From the sequence record NC_054914.1: DNA of 64,000 nt; one strand, 5' to 3'. Position 1 is the first letter of the stretch. Every line of letters begins with the position of its first letter. Shown here in pieces: positions 5,124-40,734 of this stretch. The notes beneath the pieces were generated by a model. It saw only the letters and a list, made by a program, of their open reading frames with translations, did not search any database and had not been told where the DNA came from. The stretch is from Escherichia phage vB_EcoM-fFiEco06. A program made the translations under genes and the position numbers.

Positions 5124-5149
5124 TTAATATCCTCTTTGTTTTGGTTTAT

Positions 5150-5193
5150 TTTACCAAAAATTTATAAAGCAATATAGGAGCCGAAGCTCCTAT
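5150..5193 (-). terminator. Rho-independent terminator (UUCG hairpin plus U-tract)
   Basis: AUAGGAGC-UUCG-GCUCCUAU followed by UUGCUUUAUAAAUUUUUGG. Confidence 0.6.
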
Positions 5194-9935: not shown

Positions 9936-11749
9936 TGATGCTTAACCCTATGCATGATTTCTTTATTTTTGCCGAGATTAAATCCGCGTTCGTTCGGATT
10001 TCCCAAATAACCACATGTTCTTCTTATTGTATTCATCTTTTTAGGATCAGTTTCTCCACAAATAGAACAAACAAATCCGTTTTCAGTAGGAGTCATTTCA
10101 TGGGTACTTCTGCATGTAAAACATTTATCCACTGGCATATTAACACCAAAATAATCTAAATGTTGTGCAGCATAATCCCATACGGCCTCAAGACCTTTCA
10201 AGTTATTTTTCATATCAGGAAGTTCAACATAAGAAATGTGACCACCTGTCGCAATGAAATGATATGGCGCTTCACGAGAAATCTTTTCAAACGGAGTAAT
10301 ATTTTCTTCTACTGAGACATGGAAACTGTTAGTGTACCAGCCTTTATCGGTAACATCTTTTACGCTTCCATATTTTTCTGTATCGAGTTTACAGAAGCGA
10401 TAACAAAGGTTTTCAGCAGGAGTCGAATATAAACTAAAAGCAAATCCGGTTCTTTCAGTCCACTGTTTAAGATGAGCATTCATTTTAGTTAAAATTTCTC
10501 GTCCAATATCACGACCGACAAGAATATTCAATTCGTGAATACCAATGTATCCTAAAGACACTGAACTTCTACCGTTTTTAAATAACTCAATTATATCGTC
10601 ATCAGGTTTAAGACGAACCCCAAATGCACCTTCTTGGTAAAGAATAGGAGCAACAGTAGCTTTAACTCCTTTTAAGGAACTAATTCTACACATCAAAGCT
10701 TCAAAACATAAATCCATTCGTTCATTGAACAATTCAACAAATTTCTGTTCATTGAACTGTGTTCCAATATAAGAATCTAACGCGATGCGAGGAAGATTCA
10801 GTGTTACAACACCAAGATTATTACGTCCATCAAGAATTTCATTACCAGTCGAATCTTTCCATACGCCCAAGAAACTACGGCAACCCATTGGAGAAACAGG
10901 AACAGATGAACCAGTGATAGCTTTATTGTTCTTAGCTGAAATAATATCAGGATACATCCTTTTGCTTGCACACTCTAGAGCAAGCTGCTTAATATCATAG
11001 TTCGGATCGTCTTTATAAAGATTAACACCTTCTTCAACGAACATAACAAGCTTAGGGAAAATAGGAGTTATTCCATCACGACCAAGACCTTTAATACGAT
11101 TTTTCAGAATTGCTTTCTGAATCATTCGTTCAGTCCAGTCAGTTCCTGTACCAAATGTAATTGTTACAAAAGGTGTTTGTCCGTTTGAACTAAAGAGAGT
11201 ATTTACTTCATATTCATAAGCTTGGAATGCATCGTATACATCTTTTTCTGTTTTAGATTGAGCATAATTCAACGCATCAGCGATTTGCCATTTTTCTGCA
11301 TCCTCAATATGTTTTGCATAGGTGCGTTTAACATAAGGAGAAAGTACTTTATCGACATTAGCAAATGTAGTTCCGCCATATTGGTGAGAAGCAACCTGTG
11401 CAGTAATTTGTGCCATAATTGCAGTAGCAACACCGATTGATTTAGGAGTTTCAATCTGTGCATTACCAAGCTTAAATCCGTTCTCAAGCATTCCTTTTAA
11501 ATCTACTAAACAACAATTAGTAAATGGAAGAGCAGGGGAATAATCAATATCGTGGAAATGGATAATTCCGCTTTCATGCGCTTTCATAATAAAAGACGGG
11601 ACCATATTTTTGGCAATGTGTTTAGACACAATACCAGCCATAAGGTCCCGTTGAGTTGGAAAAACACGAGAATCTTTATTAGCATTCTCGTTTAAAAGGT
11701 CTTTATTAGTTTTATGAATCAATCCTTCAATTTCTTTTTCAATTGTCAT
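9932..11749 (-). CDS. nrdD: Anaerobic ribonucleoside-triphosphate reductase (glycyl radical enzyme), uninterrupted
   Basis: 605 aa continuous ORF; C-terminal zinc ribbon CFTC...CSIC and glycyl-radical region RRTCGYLG. Confidence 0.92.
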   Translation of the reverse strand: MTIEKEIEGLIHKTNKDLLNENANKDSRVFPTQRDLMAGIVSKHIAKNMVPSFIMKAHESGIIHFHDIDYSPALPFTNCCLVDLKGMLENGFKLGNAQIETPKSIGVATAIMAQITAQVASHQYGGTTFANVDKVLSPYVKRTYAKHIEDAEKWQIADALNYAQSKTEKDVYDAFQAYEYEVNTLFSSNGQTPFVTITFGTGTDWTERMIQKAILKNRIKGLGRDGITPIFPKLVMFVEEGVNLYKDDPNYDIKQLALECASKRMYPDIISAKNNKAITGSSVPVSPMGCRSFLGVWKDSTGNEILDGRNNLGVVTLNLPRIALDSYIGTQFNEQKFVELFNERMDLCFEALMCRISSLKGVKATVAPILYQEGAFGVRLKPDDDIIELFKNGRSSVSLGYIGIHELNILVGRDIGREILTKMNAHLKQWTERTGFAFSLYSTPAENLCYRFCKLDTEKYGSVKDVTDKGWYTNSFHVSVEENITPFEKISREAPYHFIATGGHISYVELPDMKNNLKGLEAVWDYAAQHLDYFGVNMPVDKCFTCRSTHEMTPTENGFVCSICGETDPKKMNTIRRTCGYLGNPNERGFNLGKNKEIMHRVKHQ

Positions 11750-27025: not shown

Positions 27026-27243
27026 GTAACCTTTAAGCAGTATTCTTCTACATGCTGTTTACGACCTTTCTTATCAATAAAGGTATATTCAACGAATGTT
27101 CCAATGTAGTCTTTATCTACATCATGCGGACTATTAATTGGACATTTAGTACGGCAAATGCGTTCCCATTGACGAATAATTACTGCCTTATTCTTTGGGT
27201 CATATGGATGTGGATAATGTATATTCATAATAACGGTTCCCAA
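27016..27243 (-). CDS. Hypothetical small protein
   Basis: 75 aa. Confidence 0.4.
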   Translation of the reverse strand: MGTVIMNIHYPHPYDPKNKAVIIRQWERICRTKCPINSPHDVDKDYIGTFVEYTFIDKKGRKQHVEEYCLKVTWL

Positions 27244-27692
27244 TCAACAATCACAATTTCTAATTTAGAGGAATATGTATCTAAAATCCCCTCAATAATA
27301 TCCCAGTTCCCTTTACCTATGCCTGCACCAATCCTAGGCATATAGATTGTAGGTTTAATCAGTTTATTTTCACCAAACTCATTTAATTCTAACATACAAT
27401 TCATTAAAGCGGAATACTCAAAATTTGGCCCTGGTTGAAATTGAGTATAAAGGTTGAAGCAATACGCTTTATGAGTCCTAAAGTATTTTTCATAGACTGA
27501 GTAAGAACCGAGTTTAGTTACATCACCCCATTCAGTCTGTAATTTATCAGCTTCCAAAATTTTAGGGAAAGCTTTGGTTAATTGACCCGCTACGCCTGAA
27601 CCCATAGTATGAAAACAATTGCATCCATGCGCAATATTTTTACCTTCAGCGAAAAGGGCGACAATATCGCCCTTGATATATTTTACAATCAT
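27225..27692 (-). CDS. Macro-domain protein (ADP-ribose binding/processing)
   Basis: 155 aa; GDIVALFAEGKNIAHGCNCFHTMGSGVAGQL matches macro-domain glycine-rich motifs. Confidence 0.65.
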   Translation of the reverse strand: MIVKYIKGDIVALFAEGKNIAHGCNCFHTMGSGVAGQLTKAFPKILEADKLQTEWGDVTKLGSYSVYEKYFRTHKAYCFNLYTQFQPGPNFEYSALMNCMLELNEFGENKLIKPTIYMPRIGAGIGKGNWDIIEGILDTYSSKLEIVIVDWEPLL

Positions 27693-28030
27693 CTAGTACT
27701 CAATCCTCGATTATAAGAATCTACCAAACGGTCAACCATTGAATGACAAGCGGCTTTATCTTTCTCCTCCGCAACTGAACATTCTAAGGTATTCCACTTT
27801 TTAGCATATCGTTTTAATAATGTATCGTTTTTGTATCTGCTTGATTTATCTCTTTCTCCGTCTTTATATGCATATATTAATTTCTGCGCAAATTCAGCTT
27901 GGCATGCTTTATTTTTCCCACAATAATCTGCCGCAGTGCGATTTACATATTCTCTAATTTCAGTATATGATGTATCTGCTAACGCAGAAAATGAAATTAA
28001 TCCTATACATAAAACCAAAATTTTAGTCAT
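27689..28030 (-). CDS. vs: Secreted/periplasmic small protein (vs position)
   Basis: 113 aa with N-terminal signal peptide; position between the macro-domain gene and vs.1 as in T4. Confidence 0.4.
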   Translation of the reverse strand: MTKILVLCIGLISFSALADTSYTEIREYVNRTAADYCGKNKACQAEFAQKLIYAYKDGERDKSSRYKNDTLLKRYAKKWNTLECSVAEEKDKAACHSMVDRLVDSYNRGLSTR

Positions 28031-28568
28031 TTACTATTTCCAAAAGTTTATTATTTTTAAGGTAATTAGCCTTTTCTAGGACTTCAGAAGCATATTTAGA
28101 ACCTGCTTTAACATTCCATCCCGAATTATAAGATGATATTGCTTTTCTTATATCGCCCTTATGTATATTTAACCAATAAGAAAGTTCAATGTACGCCCAG
28201 GAAGCTGAATTGGATCGTTTATTCAACATTCTTTTTATTTCAGCATCGGTCATATTATAACCAAGTTCCTTAACTCTTGCTCGCATAGTAGGCAAATAAT
28301 TTTGGAACATTCCATAAGCGTGATGCTTTGGTTTAGATTTTAAATTAACTCCGCCAGAGCTTTCTTGCCATAAAATGGCTGCCATTATATGGCCTAATCC
28401 GCTCTTGTGGATGTTTTTGTGTGTTTTATATTTTCCATCCTTAGAAAATTGTTCCCCGAATTGATACGCGTAACGCATGTTATCGAGTTGGACATTACTG
28501 AAAGTATGCTCGGAGCTATGTGCCATCATTGAAATGGCCAATAGACCAGCGAGTAGTGCTTTTCTCAT
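28023..28568 (-). CDS. Secreted protein, possible lytic-transglycosylase-like (vs.1 position)
   Basis: 181 aa with signal peptide MRKALLAGLLAISMMAHS. Confidence 0.45.
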   Translation of the reverse strand: MRKALLAGLLAISMMAHSSEHTFSNVQLDNMRYAYQFGEQFSKDGKYKTHKNIHKSGLGHIMAAILWQESSGGVNLKSKPKHHAYGMFQNYLPTMRARVKELGYNMTDAEIKRMLNKRSNSASWAYIELSYWLNIHKGDIRKAISSYNSGWNVKAGSKYASEVLEKANYLKNNKLLEIVND

Positions 28569-28575
28569 GCTTACC

Positions 28576-29037
28576 TCATTGAGTTTTAATTACTGCTTTA
28601 GAAGCCTTTCCTGGTAAACGACGACTGTTGATAATTGCCATCCTGCATTGAAGTGACGGGTTTTTGAACTTCTCATTAGGCTTACAAACCGTAAATCCAA
28701 GCCAAAGATTTCCATCTGTGATTTCTAAACGTCCAGGACGATATTCAACCCCATCAATAAAATCCTCGTCAATGTCAGGACGCGGAGGCATACTCAGGAA
28801 TTCATTAACTTCTAAAACATGGTCTTTTATTTTATGGAATAATTCAAAAACATATGTCTCATCAATCTCCCGTTGAATTGCACGATCAAGAAGATGTTGA
28901 GAATATTTTAGATGAAACGATGAGACTCCTGCTGCTTTTGATGCCTCACGAATCTCATTGTTAATTTGACGAAACTCCGACTCAAAATGACGACGAAGCT
29001 TATTTCGACGGATAAAAACTTCTGTATTGATAGTCAT
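28576..29037 (-). CDS. regB: Endoribonuclease RegB
   Basis: 153 aa; position and sequence match T4 RegB as recalled. Confidence 0.85.
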   Translation of the reverse strand: MTINTEVFIRRNKLRRHFESEFRQINNEIREASKAAGVSSFHLKYSQHLLDRAIQREIDETYVFELFHKIKDHVLEVNEFLSMPPRPDIDEDFIDGVEYRPGRLEITDGNLWLGFTVCKPNEKFKNPSLQCRMAIINSRRLPGKASKAVIKTQ

Positions 29038-29063
29038 GTTGTTCTCCTCTTAACTGATAGAAA

Positions 29064-29094
29064 AATTATACCACAGTCAAGAGGAAAAGTAAAC
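29064..29094 (-). promoter_or_regulatory. T4-type early promoter upstream of regB
   Basis: Minus strand GTTTAC, 18-nt spacer, TGTGGTATAATT. Confidence 0.6.
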
Positions 29095-29096
29095 AG

Positions 29097-29375
29097 TTAT
29101 TCTTTAAATCTAATCAATTTATTCATAGACTTTGAAACTTCTGCACGAACCTCATGTAGATTTTTGAGCTGTTCAAGACGCTGCGTATAGTAAGCAATTT
29201 CATCTTCTTCGAGACAGTCCTGTGAATCTTCTTTAAGATACCGTGCATAGTCCTGGAAAGCGTTACGGACTACTTCCTGGAAGTCATCAAGACTTTGAAT
29301 TTTCTTAGGAGCAGCAGACACACGACGAGGGGCAGTATAATACTCATAACCAAACCCTGCGCTTAATTGAGCCAT
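29097..29375 (-). CDS. Hypothetical protein (vs.3 position)
   Basis: Start set at the internal Met that abuts the upstream gene's stop. Confidence 0.35.
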
Positions 29376-29641
29376 TAGTATTTTTCCTCTGGTTGGAACA
29401 CAGCACGACAAGCCCACATACTGGCTTCTTTGAGTTTCGTTTTAGCAATAGCTAACTGATCGAGGCTTTCAGCATAATTCTTCGCGAGTTCAAAGTCTTC
29501 GCAATTATCTAGTGCTTCCCAGAATTCATCATATAAAGCATCAAAGATAAGTCCTAAACGAACTTCAGCGTCTTTAATAGCATTTACTTTACCGATTTTT
29601 TCGTCGGTATGTGGCTTATAACCTTTAATATCTTCAATCAT
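29375..29641 (-). CDS. vs.4: Acb2-like protein (vs.4 position); candidate cyclic-oligonucleotide sponge
   Basis: Helical, about 88 aa from [12 protein letters not shown]...; fourth gene after regB. Sequence identity not verified. Confidence 0.45.
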
Positions 29642-29855
29642 ATTTGACTTCCTCACCAGTACATAAATCGTATTCAACTAAACGAATAGGTTCATGAATG
29701 CCATATCCCTGAACAGAAATTTCTGTCGTAGGATAAATTCCACTAATATCACCCATATTCCACGCTTCATTAAATTGATGTTCGCCTGAATTACTAAACC
29801 ATTCTGCGAAAGCATTTAACACATCTTTAGAACCTTCAATAATTATCTTTGCCAT
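29634..29855 (-). CDS. Hypothetical small protein (vs.5 position)
   Basis: 73 aa. Confidence 0.4.
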   Translation of the reverse strand: MAKIIIEGSKDVLNAFAEWFSNSGEHQFNEAWNMGDISGIYPTTEISVQGYGIHEPIRLVEYDLCTGEEVKYD

Positions 29856-30217
29856 TACAAGCTCTCAGTAAAGGTACGAGCGATAACGTCGCGCTGCTGT
29901 TCCGGAGTCAGAGAGTTAAAGCGAACTGCATAACCGGATACACGGATGGTCAGCTGCGGATATTTTTCCGGATGCTTAACTGCATCTTCCAGAGTTTCAC
30001 GACGCAGAACGTTAACGTTCAGGTGTTGACCACCTTCAATTTTAACTGTAGGCTGTGTCTCAATTTCAATTTCACGGGCATGCAAACCATAGAAAATTTC
30101 TGGGTCTACAAAAGAGTCCTCTTTAAAGGTTTTAGAGACAATAATTCGTGCTTGAATACCATCTTCAAAATAAATAGTACCTTTATGTGTGCCTTCAAGA
30201 ATTTGATATGCTTTCAT
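29855..30217 (-). CDS. Autonomous glycyl radical cofactor (GrcA/YfiD-like)
   Basis: 120 aa; C-terminal glycyl-radical motif [29 protein letters not shown]; the 3' half is about 50% GC. Confidence 0.8.
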
Positions 30218-30223
30218 ATAACC

Positions 30224-30604
30224 TCAATTAGAAAATAAATTTATCCAAGATTGTTCTTTAATTAAAAATGGCTCAGAATCATATGCCATTAAACTCTGTG
30301 TGATTAGTCCTTTAAAAGGCCCATCAATAAATTCCATGGTAAAATATGGAATTTTATTCATTAGCCGTGCATTAGGAGCCGTGCACAAAACTCTGCATCC
30401 TTTGAATACGCCTTTTTGTAATTTGTATTGCTTGGGATAAAATTCGCTCAAAATGTTATTTTTTGCCAAAATTTCAAAATGATTCACCAATTTATTTTTA
30501 ATAGTTTTTGGCGAAAAATAAAGATATTCGAAAAGCTGAGTGTCTGTCATCATTGCATTCCGATTACGAAAAACTGTGGACGAGTAATACCACCAATGCA
30601 ACAT
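30224..30604 (-). CDS. Hypothetical protein (vs.7 position)
   Basis: 126 aa. Confidence 0.4.
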   Translation of the reverse strand: MLHWWYYSSTVFRNRNAMMTDTQLFEYLYFSPKTIKNKLVNHFEILAKNNILSEFYPKQYKLQKGVFKGCRVLCTAPNARLMNKIPYFTMEFIDGPFKGLITQSLMAYDSEPFLIKEQSWINLFSN

Positions 30605-31137
30605 TTAATATTACAGCAGCAGTGTACAGTGTCAATATGGACACTATAAATCTTATCCATATCAGGAGATTTGACAGGCTCATCAATTATATACAAAATT
30701 CGCGAAAGCGATAAACCTCTGAACTTGCTTCCTTTATTACCAATAAAACTGCGTACAGAATCAGTAAATAAACGAAAACGTATATCATCATTAGAATAAC
30801 GTGAAAATTCCTTTTTAATGTTATTTGCAGAAATTTTAGCGTAAGCTGAAGTATTAGAAAGAACAATAACTGTTCCGCCATCATACAACCAATTAGCAGC
30901 AAAGTTAGTCACAGCAATTGATTTACCAGATTGACGTCCACCGTCTAGTCGAAGTGTGCAATACTGTTTAAGTAAGTCTTCAAATGGCGGGATATATTCG
31001 TTTTTACAAATTTCTTCTACTCTAGCATCAGAATGGTGTGTAAAAGCATTCATCAGGGATAGATAAGGACCAGTTAAAAATGTTCTCATTTTGTTCTCTC
31101 TAGGTTTGGGCCATTCCATGGCGCATGAATTGTCCAT
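30550..31137 (-). CDS. Small P-loop NTPase (vs.8 position)
   Basis: Walker A GGRQSGKS and Walker B-like ILYIIDEP; the true start may be Met17 near 31089. Confidence 0.5.
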   Translation of the reverse strand: MDNSCAMEWPKPRENKMRTFLTGPYLSLMNAFTHHSDARVEEICKNEYIPPFEDLLKQYCTLRLDGGRQSGKSIAVTNFAANWLYDGGTVIVLSNTSAYAKISANNIKKEFSRYSNDDIRFRLFTDSVRSFIGNKGSKFRGLSLSRILYIIDEPVKSPDMDKIYSVHIDTVHCCCNIKCCIGGITRPQFFVIGMQ

Positions 31138-31234
31138 TTCTGTATTTACCCATTACCGCACTTGGGCTCGACCTTATTACAGGTTGGCGGGAATCCCTCA
31201 CAGAATCATGAGGTCCAGGTTATTCCCATGTTAT

Positions 31235-31651
31235 TTAAATGTAAATATTTTTGCCGTAATACTTATACCAGTGTGGCTTCATTAAAATTTTTTCATCGAG
31301 TCGTTGTTGACTCAACTTAATAGCTGATTTACATGGATTATAATCATTTTTCCATTCTACTGGAATATCGCTGATGTCAGGAACTTCAGTATCTTTTATA
31401 CTGAACCCGCGTTTTAAGCATTCCGTTATAATGTCCGATTGACGCTTTCGCAAAAATTCTAACTTATCGTAAAAGAAAGTAACATGACCAGAACCTAAAA
31501 TAAATTTAGAAGATATTTTAAAATCTTTAACGCGCTTACCGTTTGCCACATGCTTACGAACTATACCAAAAACACGCGGCAATTCACGGTATTCTGCGAT
31601 TAAATGTTGATCAGCAAGTTCAGATACTAAAGTCAAATTAATACGAGTCAT
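31235..31651 (-). CDS. denV: Endonuclease V (pyrimidine dimer DNA glycosylase)
   Basis: 138 aa; [17 protein letters not shown]...[10 protein letters not shown]. Confidence 0.92.
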
Positions 31652-31673
31652 TTTATCCCTCCAAGTAACTGTG

Positions 31674-31706
31674 AATATACTATCACAATTCTAGGAGAAA
31701 GTAAAC
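31674..31706 (-). promoter_or_regulatory. T4-type early promoter upstream of denV
   Basis: Minus strand GTTTACTTTCTCCTAGAATTGTGATAGTATATT. Confidence 0.55.
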
Positions 31707-31710
31707 AACT

Positions 31711-32241
<531 letters not shown>

Positions 32242-35906: not shown

Positions 35907-35912
35907 AGAATG

Positions 35913-36386
35913 TTATTTGATTTGTTTAGCAGACCAAATGCGGTCTTTAATAATTTTTTGGATGTCTTCAACATACTCAAGAGAGTGAACATGTGGGTTA
36001 TCTTTGAAACTATAAGCACGAGCTAGCTTTTGGCCTTCAGTTTTGATTACTAAAAGCTCTTTAAGGATAGCTTCATATTTGGAGATAATTCCTTTAACAA
36101 TATTTTTCTCTTGTGTGACTTTAGGATCTGCTTTAGGAGCAGGTTTACCTGAAGCCTTTGCAAAAGCAGCTCCAGTAGCAACTAAACTTTTCCAAGCCAT
36201 ACTAACTGCATTCCCTGTAAATCCTTCGGCTTTCATATCACGAGCAAATTGGAATCGTGATTCATCGGAAGCATCTTTATAGGAATATTTACCCGCGGCA
36301 ATGGCAGCTTTTGCAACAGCTTGAATTTCAGTGCTAGATGCTTCATTTAACACCGCTTCATTTAAAAATTGAGTATATGATTTCAT
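35913..36386 (-). CDS. Internal-protein-like late gene (capsid-targeting N-terminus)
   Basis: 157 aa Ala/Lys-rich; N-terminus MKSYTQFLNE resembles the T4 capsid-targeting sequence MKTYQEFIAE; TATAAATA late promoter upstream. Confidence 0.5.
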   Translation of the reverse strand: MKSYTQFLNEAVLNEASSTEIQAVAKAAIAAGKYSYKDASDESRFQFARDMKAEGFTGNAVSMAWKSLVATGAAFAKASGKPAPKADPKVTQEKNIVKGIISKYEAILKELLVIKTEGQKLARAYSFKDNPHVHSLEYVEDIQKIIKDRIWSAKQIK

Positions 36387-36422
36387 CTTATTTCCTGTTT
36401 TAATTCGGGGTTTTAATATACT

Positions 36423-36430
36423 TATTTATA
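36423..36430 (-). promoter_or_regulatory. Late promoter TATAAATA upstream of the internal-protein-like gene
   Basis: Minus strand AGTATAAATAAG about 37 nt upstream of the ATG at 36386. Confidence 0.6.
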
Positions 36431-36460
36431 CTAAAAAGCCCCAACCTTTCGGTCGGGGCT
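36431..36460 (-). terminator. Rho-independent terminator (copy 2) ending the tRNA/stable-RNA transcription unit
   Basis: AGCCCCGACC-GAAAG-GUUGGGGCU followed by UUUUUAG; about 30 nt shared with copy 1. Confidence 0.7.
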
Positions 36461-36776
36461 AAGCCTTGCGGCAACCTTGTCGGGGTTCCACCTGCTAAGG
36501 CAAGTGTTTGTACGAAACGCCGGGATTCGAACCCGGTTATTAAGCAGTTGACGCTACTCAATATTTTTAAAAGGCCATATCTCGACCATATCCGAACGTT
36601 CCGTCAAAAACGCTACTCGGCTTACGGCAAAGATATTTCCTCGAATCGATAATTCGGTGCGCCGTTTCTGCTGTGATATAAGGGGACATTAACAAAACAT
36701 AAAGATTTATTAATACCAGTCCTTAAACAGGGAACATCAGTCCGACGACTTGCCGGTAGCGACCCGGCTTCTTGTC
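36461..36776 (-). ncRNA. Stable RNA region (T4 species 1/2, rnaC/rnaD-like)
   Basis: Non-coding stretch between tRNA-Arg and the terminator, containing a tRNA-like T-arm (GGGTTCGAATCCCGG); position as for the T4 stable RNAs. Confidence 0.4.
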
Positions 36777-36852
36777 TGGTCGAGGCAGTAGGGATCGAAC
36801 CTACGACCCAGGACTTAGAAGGTCCTTGCTCTTCCTTCTGAGCTATGCCTCG
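36777..36852 (-). tRNA. tRNA-Arg (anticodon UCU)
   Basis: Hand-folded cloverleaf: acceptor CGAGGCA/UGCCUCG, anticodon loop CUUCUAA, T-arm GGTTCGATCC, encoded CCA. Confidence 0.8.
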
Positions 36853-36856
36853 TATT

Positions 36857-36931
36857 TGGCGGACGTGATAGGATTCGAACCTATAACCAATCGCTTAACA
36901 GGCGATCGCTCTGCCATTGAGCTACACATCC
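36857..36931 (-). tRNA. tRNA-Asn (anticodon GUU)
   Basis: Acceptor GGATGTG/CACGTCC, anticodon stem ATCGC/GCGAT with loop CTGTTAA, T-loop TTCGAAT, CCA. Confidence 0.7.
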
Positions 36932-36935
36932 AAAT

Positions 36936-37022
36936 TGGTGGGGAGTGGTGGAGTCGAACCACCCGAGTCGCAATGACAATGAATTTACAGTCCACACCGC
37001 TACCTCTACGGGATAACTCCCC
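36936..37022 (-). tRNA. tRNA-Tyr (anticodon GUA), long variable arm
   Basis: 87 nt; acceptor GGGGAGT/ACTCCCC, anticodon loop CTGTAAA, T-arm GGTGGTTCGACTCCACC, CCA. Confidence 0.65.
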
Positions 37023-37031
37023 AAATTAATT

Positions 37032-37106
37032 TGGTGGCCCTGGGTGGAATTGAACCACCATCTGGCGATTATGAGTCGCTTGCTTGAACCTTCCAGCTAC
37101 AGGGCC
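37032..37106 (-). tRNA. tRNA-Ile/Met (anticodon CAU)
   Basis: Acceptor GGCCCTG/CAGGGCC, anticodon loop CTCATAA, CCA. Confidence 0.75.
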
Positions 37107-37107
37107 T

Positions 37108-37183
37108 TGGTGCTGATTGACGGAATCGAACCGCCGACCTTCTCATTACAAGTGAGTTGCTCTACCTACTGAGCTAAATCAGC
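37108..37183 (-). tRNA. tRNA-Thr (anticodon UGU)
   Basis: Acceptor GCTGATT/AATCAGC, anticodon loop CTTGTAA, T-arm GGTTCGATTCC, CCA. Confidence 0.8.
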
Positions 37184-37188
37184 AAAAC

Positions 37189-37278
37189 TGGCGGAGGCGA
37201 TAGGATTTGAACCTATGAGTCGCCGGAGCGACTGCCGGTTTTCAAGACCGGTGCATTAAACCACTCTGCCACGCCTCC
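37189..37278 (-). tRNA. tRNA-Ser (anticodon UGA), long variable arm
   Basis: 90 nt; acceptor GGAGGCG/CGCCTCC, anticodon loop CTTGAAA. Confidence 0.8.
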
Positions 37279-37280
37279 AG

Positions 37281-37354
37281 TCTCCGTGGCAGGATTTGAA
37301 CCTACGACATTCTGCTCCCAAAGCAGACGCTCTACCAAACTGAGCTACACGGAG
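37281..37354 (-). tRNA. tRNA-Pro (anticodon UGG), CCA not encoded
   Basis: Acceptor CTCCGTG/CACGGAG, anticodon loop TTTGGGA; separated from tRNA-Ser by 2 nt. Confidence 0.8.
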
Positions 37355-37364
37355 TAAATTAAAT

Positions 37365-37438
<74 letters not shown>

Positions 37439-37443
37439 AAATT

Positions 37444-37530
37444 TGGTGCGAGAAGTGGGACTCGAACCCACAAGGAAATCATTCCGCAGCATTTTAAGTG
37501 CTGTGCCTTTACCAATTTGGCCATTCTCGC
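37444..37530 (-). tRNA. tRNA-Leu (anticodon UAA), long variable arm
   Basis: 87 nt; matches T4 tRNA-Leu as recalled (GCGAGAATGGTCAAATTGG...). Confidence 0.85.
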
Positions 37531-37531
37531 G

Positions 37532-37604
37532 CTGGGAATAAAGGACTCGAACCTTTGCATCCTGGAATCAAAATCCAGTGCCTTACCAACTTGGCTAATT
37601 CCCA
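37532..37604 (-). tRNA. tRNA-Gln (anticodon UUG), CCA not encoded
   Basis: TGGGAATTAGCCAAGTTGGTAAGGCACTGGATTTTGATTCCAGG...; abuts tRNA-Leu with a 1-nt spacer. Confidence 0.85.
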
Positions 37605-37701
37605 ATTATTAACAAAGGCTCTTAAGCAAGAACCCTTGATGATAGAGGGTATTAATCAGTGCGATATGAGTTAATAATAACAAATAATTCTTAAAGCATA
37701 T

Positions 37702-38633: not shown

Positions 38634-38867
38634 TTATTTTTTACGAAAAATTGATTTATTTTCTGCTGCCCATTTTTCAATAACTGCAGCAGGACCAGTA
38701 ACAACAATTTTATCACCGTAATCTTCTGCGGCGAGTTGACCGAAATTATCTAATGCATCACGAAGAACTCCATGAGGCATTTCACCCATTTTATCTTTCT
38801 TGCCAGTGTAAATAAACTCAACTTTTACATCAGCAGTTTCAGCAATAAATTCTTGGTAAGTTTTCAT
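38634..38867 (-). CDS. Internal protein (ip-like) with canonical capsid-targeting sequence
   Basis: Start taken at the second Met: MKTYQEFIAE matches the T4 capsid-targeting sequence as recalled; own early promoter. Confidence 0.55.
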   Translation of the reverse strand: MKTYQEFIAETADVKVEFIYTGKKDKMGEMPHGVLRDALDNFGQLAAEDYGDKIVVTGPAAVIEKWAAENKSIFRKK

Positions 38868-38898
38868 TTTGATTTCCATTTGGTTTTGTTTTGATAGG

Positions 38899-38931
38899 GT
38901 AATAGTATCACAACTAAAACCCTATGTAAAC
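38899..38931 (-). promoter_or_regulatory. T4-type early promoter with inverted repeat around the -10
   Basis: ATAGGGT ... ACCCTAT flanks the -10; drives the ip-like gene at 38634-38867. Confidence 0.55.
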
Positions 38932-38943
38932 AACTTTGTGAAA

Positions 38944-39201
38944 TTATTTTAAATCTTCTAATCGTTTCTTCATCTTAGAGCCATTTTTAGCAATTTCTCC
39001 TGCATCGGAGCATAATGCTAAAAGTGCTTTAACTTTAGTTTGGTCTCCTTTAAAAGATGAAGGATCGACCGCAGCAGCAAGTTCTTTAATACGAGAGAAA
39101 AGACGCTCAGCTTCAGCTAAAGCCATTCCAAGCTTTACTTCCATACCGTGGGAAGATTCAGTGATAGTAGTTTTTGTAGCAAACTCTTTGAAAGTTTTCA
39201 T
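38944..39201 (-). CDS. Internal protein (ip-like) with capsid-targeting-like N-terminus
   Basis: 85 aa; MKTFKEFATKTTITE with an I-x-E cleavage-type motif; own early promoter. Confidence 0.5.
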   Translation of the reverse strand: MKTFKEFATKTTITESSHGMEVKLGMALAEAERLFSRIKELAAAVDPSSFKGDQTKVKALLALCSDAGEIAKNGSKMKKRLEDLK

Positions 39202-39274: not shown

Positions 39275-39959
<685 letters not shown>

Positions 39960-40685: not shown

Positions 40686-40734
40686 ATGTTTCTCCTCAAA
40701 TTTAGTTAAGATTATAACACATGAAACTGAAGCA

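Follow-up and report, generated by a model that had tools for sequence, protein, structure and literature searches.

The 64,000 nucleotides from Escherichia phage vB_EcoM-fFiEco06 (sequence record NC_054914.1) analyzed here, called the window in the following, contain a small ORF that had been proposed to encode Acb2, a sponge for cyclic oligonucleotides. The proposal was based on gene position and on sequence, not on a search. Gene 57B of the same window had been named as the homolog of Acb1, so that both anti-CBASS components appeared to be present. This locus raises the question whether the small ORF indeed encodes an Acb2, which ligands such a protein would bind and what the presence of both genes would mean for the phage.

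Identity of the 88-residue protein

The coordinates proposed for the ORF proved to be exact. It comprises 88 codons followed by a TAA stop and is located on the minus strand, which the initial annotation had not stated (Table 1). A phmmer search against all PDB chains matched the product over its full length to T4 Vs.4 (PDB 7UQ2; Jenson et al. 2023, PMC10097602) with an E-value of 8.2e-54. The alignment to T4 Vs.4/Acb2, which had been suggested as a check, gave 84 of 88 identical residues (95.5%); the T4 reference sequence was checked against NC_000866. Acb2 of PaMx33 (8H2J, 8IXZ) was found as a weak match in the same search (E about 0.01). The product further matched the Pfam family Acb2_Tad1_hairpin (PF24729) with a score of 73.6 bits at a cut-off of 27, as well as PHROG 717 (E 3e-32), the group by which Jenson et al. 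defined and collected the Vs.4 homologues (PMC10097602). No NCBIfam model matched the acb2 or the acb1 product. The searches thus confirm the proposed Acb2 call. We consider it highly probable that the ORF is an intact, wild-type-like acb2 (vs.4) allele of a T4-like Tequatrovirus and that it encodes a hexameric cyclic-dinucleotide sponge; ligand binding and anti-CBASS activity would be expected from the near-identity to the tested T4 proteins.

The protein is widespread. By tblastn the acb2 product was found in 1,231 phage records, and the exact protein sequence is present on 74 contigs and in several deposited phages (e.g. AUV61255.1). UniRef lists this exact sequence as “Acb2/Tad1 hairpin domain-containing protein”.

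Genomic context of acb2

In a megablast search, positions 28000–31000 of the window matched Escherichia phage vB_EcoM-fHoEco02 (MG781191, Tequatrovirus) with 100% identity; for several hundred T4-like phages the identity was 95% or more. When the first 50 kb of the window were compared with MG781191 by BLAST, four mismatches and one 10-base gap were found (99.97% identity). On the minus strand the genes follow each other in the series denV, vs.8, vs.7, vs.6, vs.5, vs.4, vs.3, regB, vs.1 and vs, and the same series is found in T4 (NC_000866). The ORF shares with T4 vs.4 its length of 88 residues and its slot between vs.5 and vs.3. It had been described as the fourth gene after regB; according to the gene order it lies two genes upstream of regB and is the fourth when counted from vs. 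This slip leaves the conclusion on Acb2 untouched.

The genes around acb2 are tightly packed. The TGA stop of vs.5 and the start of acb2 overlap by 8 nt, suggesting that translation of the two genes may be coupled. In contrast, vs.5 of the T4 reference is an ORF of only 58 aa, owing to a frameshift, and ends 36 nt before acb2; another T4 frame encodes the C-terminus of the longer window protein. On the downstream side, the stop codon of acb2 and the start codon of vs.3 overlap as TAATG (junction sequence AAAAATACTAATGGCTCAA). The GAGGA sequence upstream of acb2 is also found in T4.

Table 1. Position of acb2, acb1 and associated features in the window.
Feature	Position	Strand	Description	Basis
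acb2 (vs.4) CDS	29375..29641	-	88 aa + TAA stop	ORF, 7UQ2, PF24729, PHROG 717
Shine-Dalgarno-like GAGGA	29650..29654	-	8 nt before acb2 ATG	motif match only
vs.5	29634..29855	-	73 aa, directly upstream of acb2	ORF list, record annotation, PHROG 1986 (full length)
vs.3	29097..29375	-	92 aa, directly downstream of acb2	annotation, PHROG 2037
acb1 (57B)	39275..39733	-	2H phosphoesterase, 152 aa	T4 NP_049750.1 identity, PF23474, 7T26, UniRef
MotA-box-type middle-promoter-like site	40709..40734	-	upstream of gene 1-57A-57B	consensus match only

Identity of gene 57B as acb1

Gene 57B is located about 9.6 kb from acb2 on the same strand, exactly at the coordinates at which an Acb1 homolog had been proposed. 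All 152 residues of its product are identical to T4 NP_049750.1. The two H-x-T/S motifs that had been noticed in the protein are H44-S-T46 and H113-I-T115, leaving the HxT/HxT catalytic tetrad intact. The product scored 202.7 bits against the Acb1 family PF23474 (cut-off 27) and matched the sequence of the FBB1 Acb1 crystal structure 7T26 with an E-value of 4e-62; UniRef names the exact sequence “Anti-CBASS protein Acb1 ACB1_BPT4”. T4 Acb1 cleaves 3'3'-cGAMP, cUA, cAAA and cAAG (Hobbs et al. 2022, PMC9117128). The window enzyme would be expected to act likewise, being identical to the tested T4 protein (PMC9117128). The gene lies at the same place as in T4, downstream of genes 1 and 57A, and there is no difference to T4 at the protein level. 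The downstream neighbors differ, however: ip5 and ip6 follow acb1 in the window, ipI in T4.

With an intact ORF for both acb2 and acb1, the view that both anti-CBASS components are present in the window is supported. Neither gene is new: acb2 and acb1 are well characterized, and their exact protein sequences are already public. The near-identical genome MG781191 still labels acb2 and acb1 “hypothetical protein”.

Functional residues and substitutions

The residues important for Vs.4 function are known from T4. The bases of cGAMP are stacked by Y8 and F82, and Y8, H11, K23 and R79 provide hydrogen bonds and salt bridges. The mutation S74N disturbs ligand contacts and T12I abolishes a helix cap; formation of the hexamer requires L29, A66, A73 and A77, with a milder effect of F33 (PMC10097602). 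The window protein differs from T4 Vs.4 by four substitutions: E13D, C50F, F52L and T64A. Retained in comparison to T4 are Y8, H11, T12, K23, L29, F33, L60, A66, A73, S74, A77, R79 and F82. All residues linked by mutagenesis to cGAMP binding or hexamer assembly are unchanged, including the complete set at the hexamerization interface (L29, F33, A66, A73, A77). Y11 and K26 of PaMx33 Acb2 fall on Y8 and K23 of the window protein in an alignment that is itself weak (E 0.01).

A similar pattern was observed among the homologues. No exchange occurs at the residues of the dinucleotide pocket in any of the five full-length Straboviridae homologues that were aligned besides T4 (window, RB68, Pet-CM3-4, RB16 and Kpn35c1). 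In the alignment of RB68, Pet-CM3-4, RB16 and Kpn35c1 the N-terminal (I/V)(K/Q)GYKPH is conserved and a C-terminal segment of 19 residues is almost invariant; the hairpin tip varies freely among the aligned homologues. For the 90% cluster, in which 13 full-length proteins were listed, variation is concentrated at positions 13–17, 43–54 and 64, and none of these 13 proteins showed variation at a ligand contact. All four substitutions of the window protein are found at positions that are polymorphic in the other 12 full-length members listed, and A64 is a common natural variant, being present in 3 of the 13. The cluster also includes two proteins of 73 aa (P0007, P0015) which correspond to Vs.5; this looks like a clustering oddity.

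These data bear on the question whether acb2 might be decayed or inactive in this phage, so that anti-CBASS activity would come from Acb1 alone. Natural loss alleles do occur: in phage T2 (NC_054931) a frameshift at codon 8 (MIEDIKG*) removes Tyr8, and in the Mosigvirus EP32a only a 42-aa remnant is left (positions 10591–10900 and 1495–1623 in the numbering of the compared T2 and EP32a stretches, respectively). In EP32a no vs.3 is annotated between the acb2 remnant and the regB-type endonuclease gene. In addition, the Panoptes defense selects for loss of acb2 (PMC12657218). The window gene, however, consists of a full-length ORF preceded by a Shine-Dalgarno-like motif, every functionally tested residue is kept, and the four substitutions all affect positions that vary in nature and lie apart from the listed ligand contacts and interface residues. 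We therefore regard inactivity of the window allele as extremely improbable and continue with a functional Acb2 as the preferred reading.

Predicted fold

The AlphaFold single-sequence model of the protein (pLDDT 83.2) consists of two long antiparallel helices, residues 13–45 and 50–81, with a short loop in between. What had been described as a small helical protein is thus predicted to be a helical hairpin. In a Foldseek comparison against the PDB, chains of 7UQ2 ranked on top (E about 1e-8), and 8H2X and 8H2J came next; E-value and ranking are helped by the sequence identity. The overlap of the model with 7UQ2 is coarse (TM 0.55, rmsd 5.1 Å), and since TM amounts to only 0.55 the model supports the hairpin class and nothing finer. 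Of the four substituted positions, 13 marks the beginning of helix 1 in the model, 50 and 52 lie where helix 2 begins, just past the loop, and 64 lies about halfway along helix 2. We consider this model unsuitable for locating the substitutions within the hexamer.

Some distant Acb2 homologues act on a signal unrelated to CBASS, and the window protein might likewise sequester such a signal, e.g. the Thoeris signal 3'cADPR. Inhibition of type I Thoeris is known for ten Acb2 homologues, and one of them, Acb2_43, binds 3'cADPR without inhibiting CBASS (PMC12393519). This specificity, however, needs extra N-/C-terminal beta-strands and the Acb2_43 contact residues T4, H5, L6, V7, K19 and K55 (PMC12393519). 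The AlphaFold single-sequence model of the window protein contains no strands, and its pocket is of the Y8/K23/F82 type found in phage T4, identical to the cGAMP-bound crystal structure. A switch to a non-CBASS ligand therefore has hardly any likelihood, and a sponge for CBASS signals remains the reading we follow.

Predicted ligand range

Acb2 proteins differ in the cyclic oligonucleotides they bind. T4-Acb2 binds cyclic dinucleotides and not cA3 or cAAG (Cao et al., PMC10312549); the Kd of T4 Vs.4 was determined as about 30 nM (PMC10097602) or, for 3'3'-cGAMP, as about 84 nM (PMC10312549). PaMx33 Acb2 (8H2J/8H2X; Huiting et al. 2023, Cao et al. PMC10312549) shares with these proteins the PF24729 family and the Y11/K26 pocket, at an identity to T4-Acb2 of 24.2% (Cao et al., PMC10312549). 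It is also a hexameric sponge with three cyclic dinucleotides bound, but unlike the window and T4 proteins it additionally binds two cyclic trinucleotides via R67 and T74 (PMC10312549). T4-Acb2 carries D61 at the position of R67, and its helix is unkinked, as a result of which Y37, A57, L60, D61 and T64 have been proposed to clash with cA3. Introducing D61R into T4-Acb2 did not rescue cA3 binding, for which the helix geometry (no kink, smaller pocket) was blamed (PMC10312549).

The window protein keeps Y37, A57, L60, D61 and T68, and A64 replaces T64. Of the five residues for which a clash with cA3 was proposed, four are therefore kept. The signature of the trinucleotide-binding subtype (PaMx33/JBD67 type), which combines Arg at the site of R67 with Thr at that of T74, is absent, as the window protein has D61 and T68 there. 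Since Asp61 replaces Arg67 and four clash residues are kept, binding of dinucleotides only is to be expected; the same range would be expected because pocket geometry and not one side chain was blamed in T4-Acb2. Judged from these residues, the window Acb2 would belong to the dinucleotide-only subtype and should leave trinucleotides to Acb1.

T64A is the sole substitution at a site discussed in the literature, and it falls within the closed trinucleotide pocket. An allele with D13, F50, L52 and A64 could have a ligand range shifted from that of T4 Acb2: T64A, perhaps aided by C50F and F52L, might partly open the vestigial trinucleotide pocket, or binding of the Panoptes decoy 2',3'-c-di-AMP might be weakened with cGAMP binding kept. 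T64 is one of the positions at which T4-Acb2 is supposed to collide with cA3, and the corresponding residue of PaMx33 Acb2 is an alanine (A70, by the offset that places R67 on D61 and T74 on T68). Yet Y37, A57, L60 and D61 are unchanged, and D61R alone failed to restore cA3 binding in T4-Acb2, where helix geometry was blamed (PMC10312549). The contacts of the dinucleotide pocket are all unchanged as well, so there is no reason to expect a selective loss of 2',3'-c-di-AMP binding.

Sequence divergence has to be weighed in the same context. Among the small neighboring genes the amino acid change is greatest in vs.4 (95.5% identity to T4; of the codon changes 4 are non-synonymous and 6 synonymous) compared to 97.4–100% for tk.4, vs, vs.1, regB, vs.3, vs.6 and vs.7; vs.5 was set aside because it is frameshifted in T4. 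This is mildly suggestive of a faster protein change in vs.4 than in its neighbors, with counts far too small to claim selection, and A64 is a common variant in the cluster, as described above. Phages have been argued to be under pressure to retune or lose Acb2 (PMC12657218), and a shifted range, if true, would mean that anti-CBASS activity is kept while Panoptes is escaped. Taking both sides together we consider a shifted range very unlikely and assume that the range of the window protein is identical to that of T4-Acb2 despite T64A.

Promoter-like motifs and expression

A promoter and terminator scan of positions 28500–31800 yielded 10 sigma-70-type sites, compared to 11.1 in shuffled sequence. 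By pattern search no MotA-box-type site was found within several kb upstream of acb2, and on the minus strand late-promoter-like TATAAATA motifs come no closer than 32219 and 32232, where they precede gene e. As no convincing promoter motif was found near acb2, the gene is probably read within the tightly packed vs.8-to-vs.3 unit.

For acb1, the MotA-type site listed in Table 1 is located 24 nt upstream of the start of gene 1 (40685), and a late-type TATAAATA motif lies inside gene 1. The pattern TGCTTNA-N11-13-TANNNT has 15 matches in the window, in comparison to 4.8 expected by chance. Further matches are found e.g. at 37674–37698 and 5148–5171, and 11 of the 15 are located on the minus strand, the carrier of most early and middle genes of the window. 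In T4, acb2 and acb1 are mainly expressed as middle/late genes according to a preprint.

Other features of the window

Similarity to T4 falls sharply at 30550–31651, where denV shows 77.5% amino acid identity and vs.8 encodes 195 aa versus 219 aa; a G+C-rich spacer of 97 nt is located at 31138–31234. In contrast, the genes tk.4 to vs.7 are 97–100% identical to T4. The region 30550–31651 thus has the appearance of a mosaic boundary. The internal head protein genes also differ from T4: ip5 and ip6 are located beside acb1 (38634–39201) and replace ipI, and neither ipII nor ipIII is present between denV and e (31652–31710). Internal proteins are injected together with the DNA and some of them counter host defenses. 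The internal protein cargo encoded in the window may therefore differ functionally. Tk.4 (27225–27692, minus strand) is a macro-domain protein matching PHROG 335, annotated as a YmdB-like O-acetyl-ADP-ribose deacetylase; its sequence is 100% identical to that of T4 Tk.4. The gene might serve in counter-defense by reversing ADP-ribosylation.

Between e.8 and rnaC/rnaD we noticed an insertion of ~520 bp relative to T4 (35908–36427) with an ORF of 157 aa (35913..36386), annotated as hypothetical. Positions 36511–36772 on the minus strand show 92% DNA identity to the T4 stable RNA genes rnaC/rnaD, and no Rfam match was obtained for the rnaC/rnaD-like region at the gathering threshold. In the near-identical GenBank record the region 36400–36772 of the same strand contains two “hypothetical protein” CDSs (36400..36564 and 36567..36710), which are probably RNA genes mis-called as proteins. 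The adjacent tRNA cluster (36777–37604, minus strand) comprises ten genes according to ARAGORN: Arg, Asn, Tyr, Met-CAU, Thr, Ser, Pro, Gly, Leu and Gln. The Rfam scan of the window returned tRNAs only and missed tRNA-Tyr at the gathering score. In comparison, the T4 cluster has eight genes. Asn and Tyr are extra in the window, the CAU tRNA occupies the place of tRNA-Ile in T4, and the homing endonuclease gene segB is absent from the window.

Proposed mechanism and biological implications

The experiments on the near-identical T4 protein allow us to propose how Acb2 would act in this phage. The 88-residue product is predicted to fold into a helical hairpin and to assemble into a hexamer. Y8, H11 and K23 from the N-terminal part and S74, R79 and F82 from the C-terminal part would form three pockets at the protomer interfaces, each of which is expected to trap one cyclic dinucleotide, e.g. 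3'3'-cGAMP, at nanomolar affinity. As the signal would be sequestered and not destroyed, it could not activate CBASS effectors such as CapV. Acb1, which cleaves di- and trinucleotides that contain adenosine, and a dinucleotide-only Acb2 would cover complementary sets of ligands, and Acb1 and Acb2 have been discussed to span a wide ligand range together (Cao et al., PMC10312549). That Vs.4 protects the phage from CBASS in vivo was shown with a T4 vs.4 knockout (PMC10097602).

This protection may have its cost. In Panoptes (OptSE), the OptE toxin is set free once 2',3'-c-di-AMP is sequestered, and T4 escapers of Panoptes carry loss-of-function mutations in acb2 including F82C (PMC12657218). An active Acb2 should trigger Panoptes by soaking up the decoy 2',3'-c-di-AMP, and with an intact Acb2 the phage is predicted to be sensitive to this defense. 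What the analysis of the window itself shows is the identity to T4 at the sequence level, the conservation of residues, the order of the genes and the motifs; the hexamer, ligand binding and both the anti-CBASS and the Panoptes phenotype are extrapolated from the work on the near-identical T4 protein.

The acb2 and acb1 genes of the window add little new biology, and the practical value of the analysis lies in annotation, given the labels of both anti-CBASS genes in MG781191. With both genes intact, the phage would be predicted to grow well on many CBASS-bearing E. coli. Intact alleles (window, T4) and broken alleles (T2, EP32a) of acb2 coexist, which fits the published opposing pull of CBASS and Panoptes on this gene.
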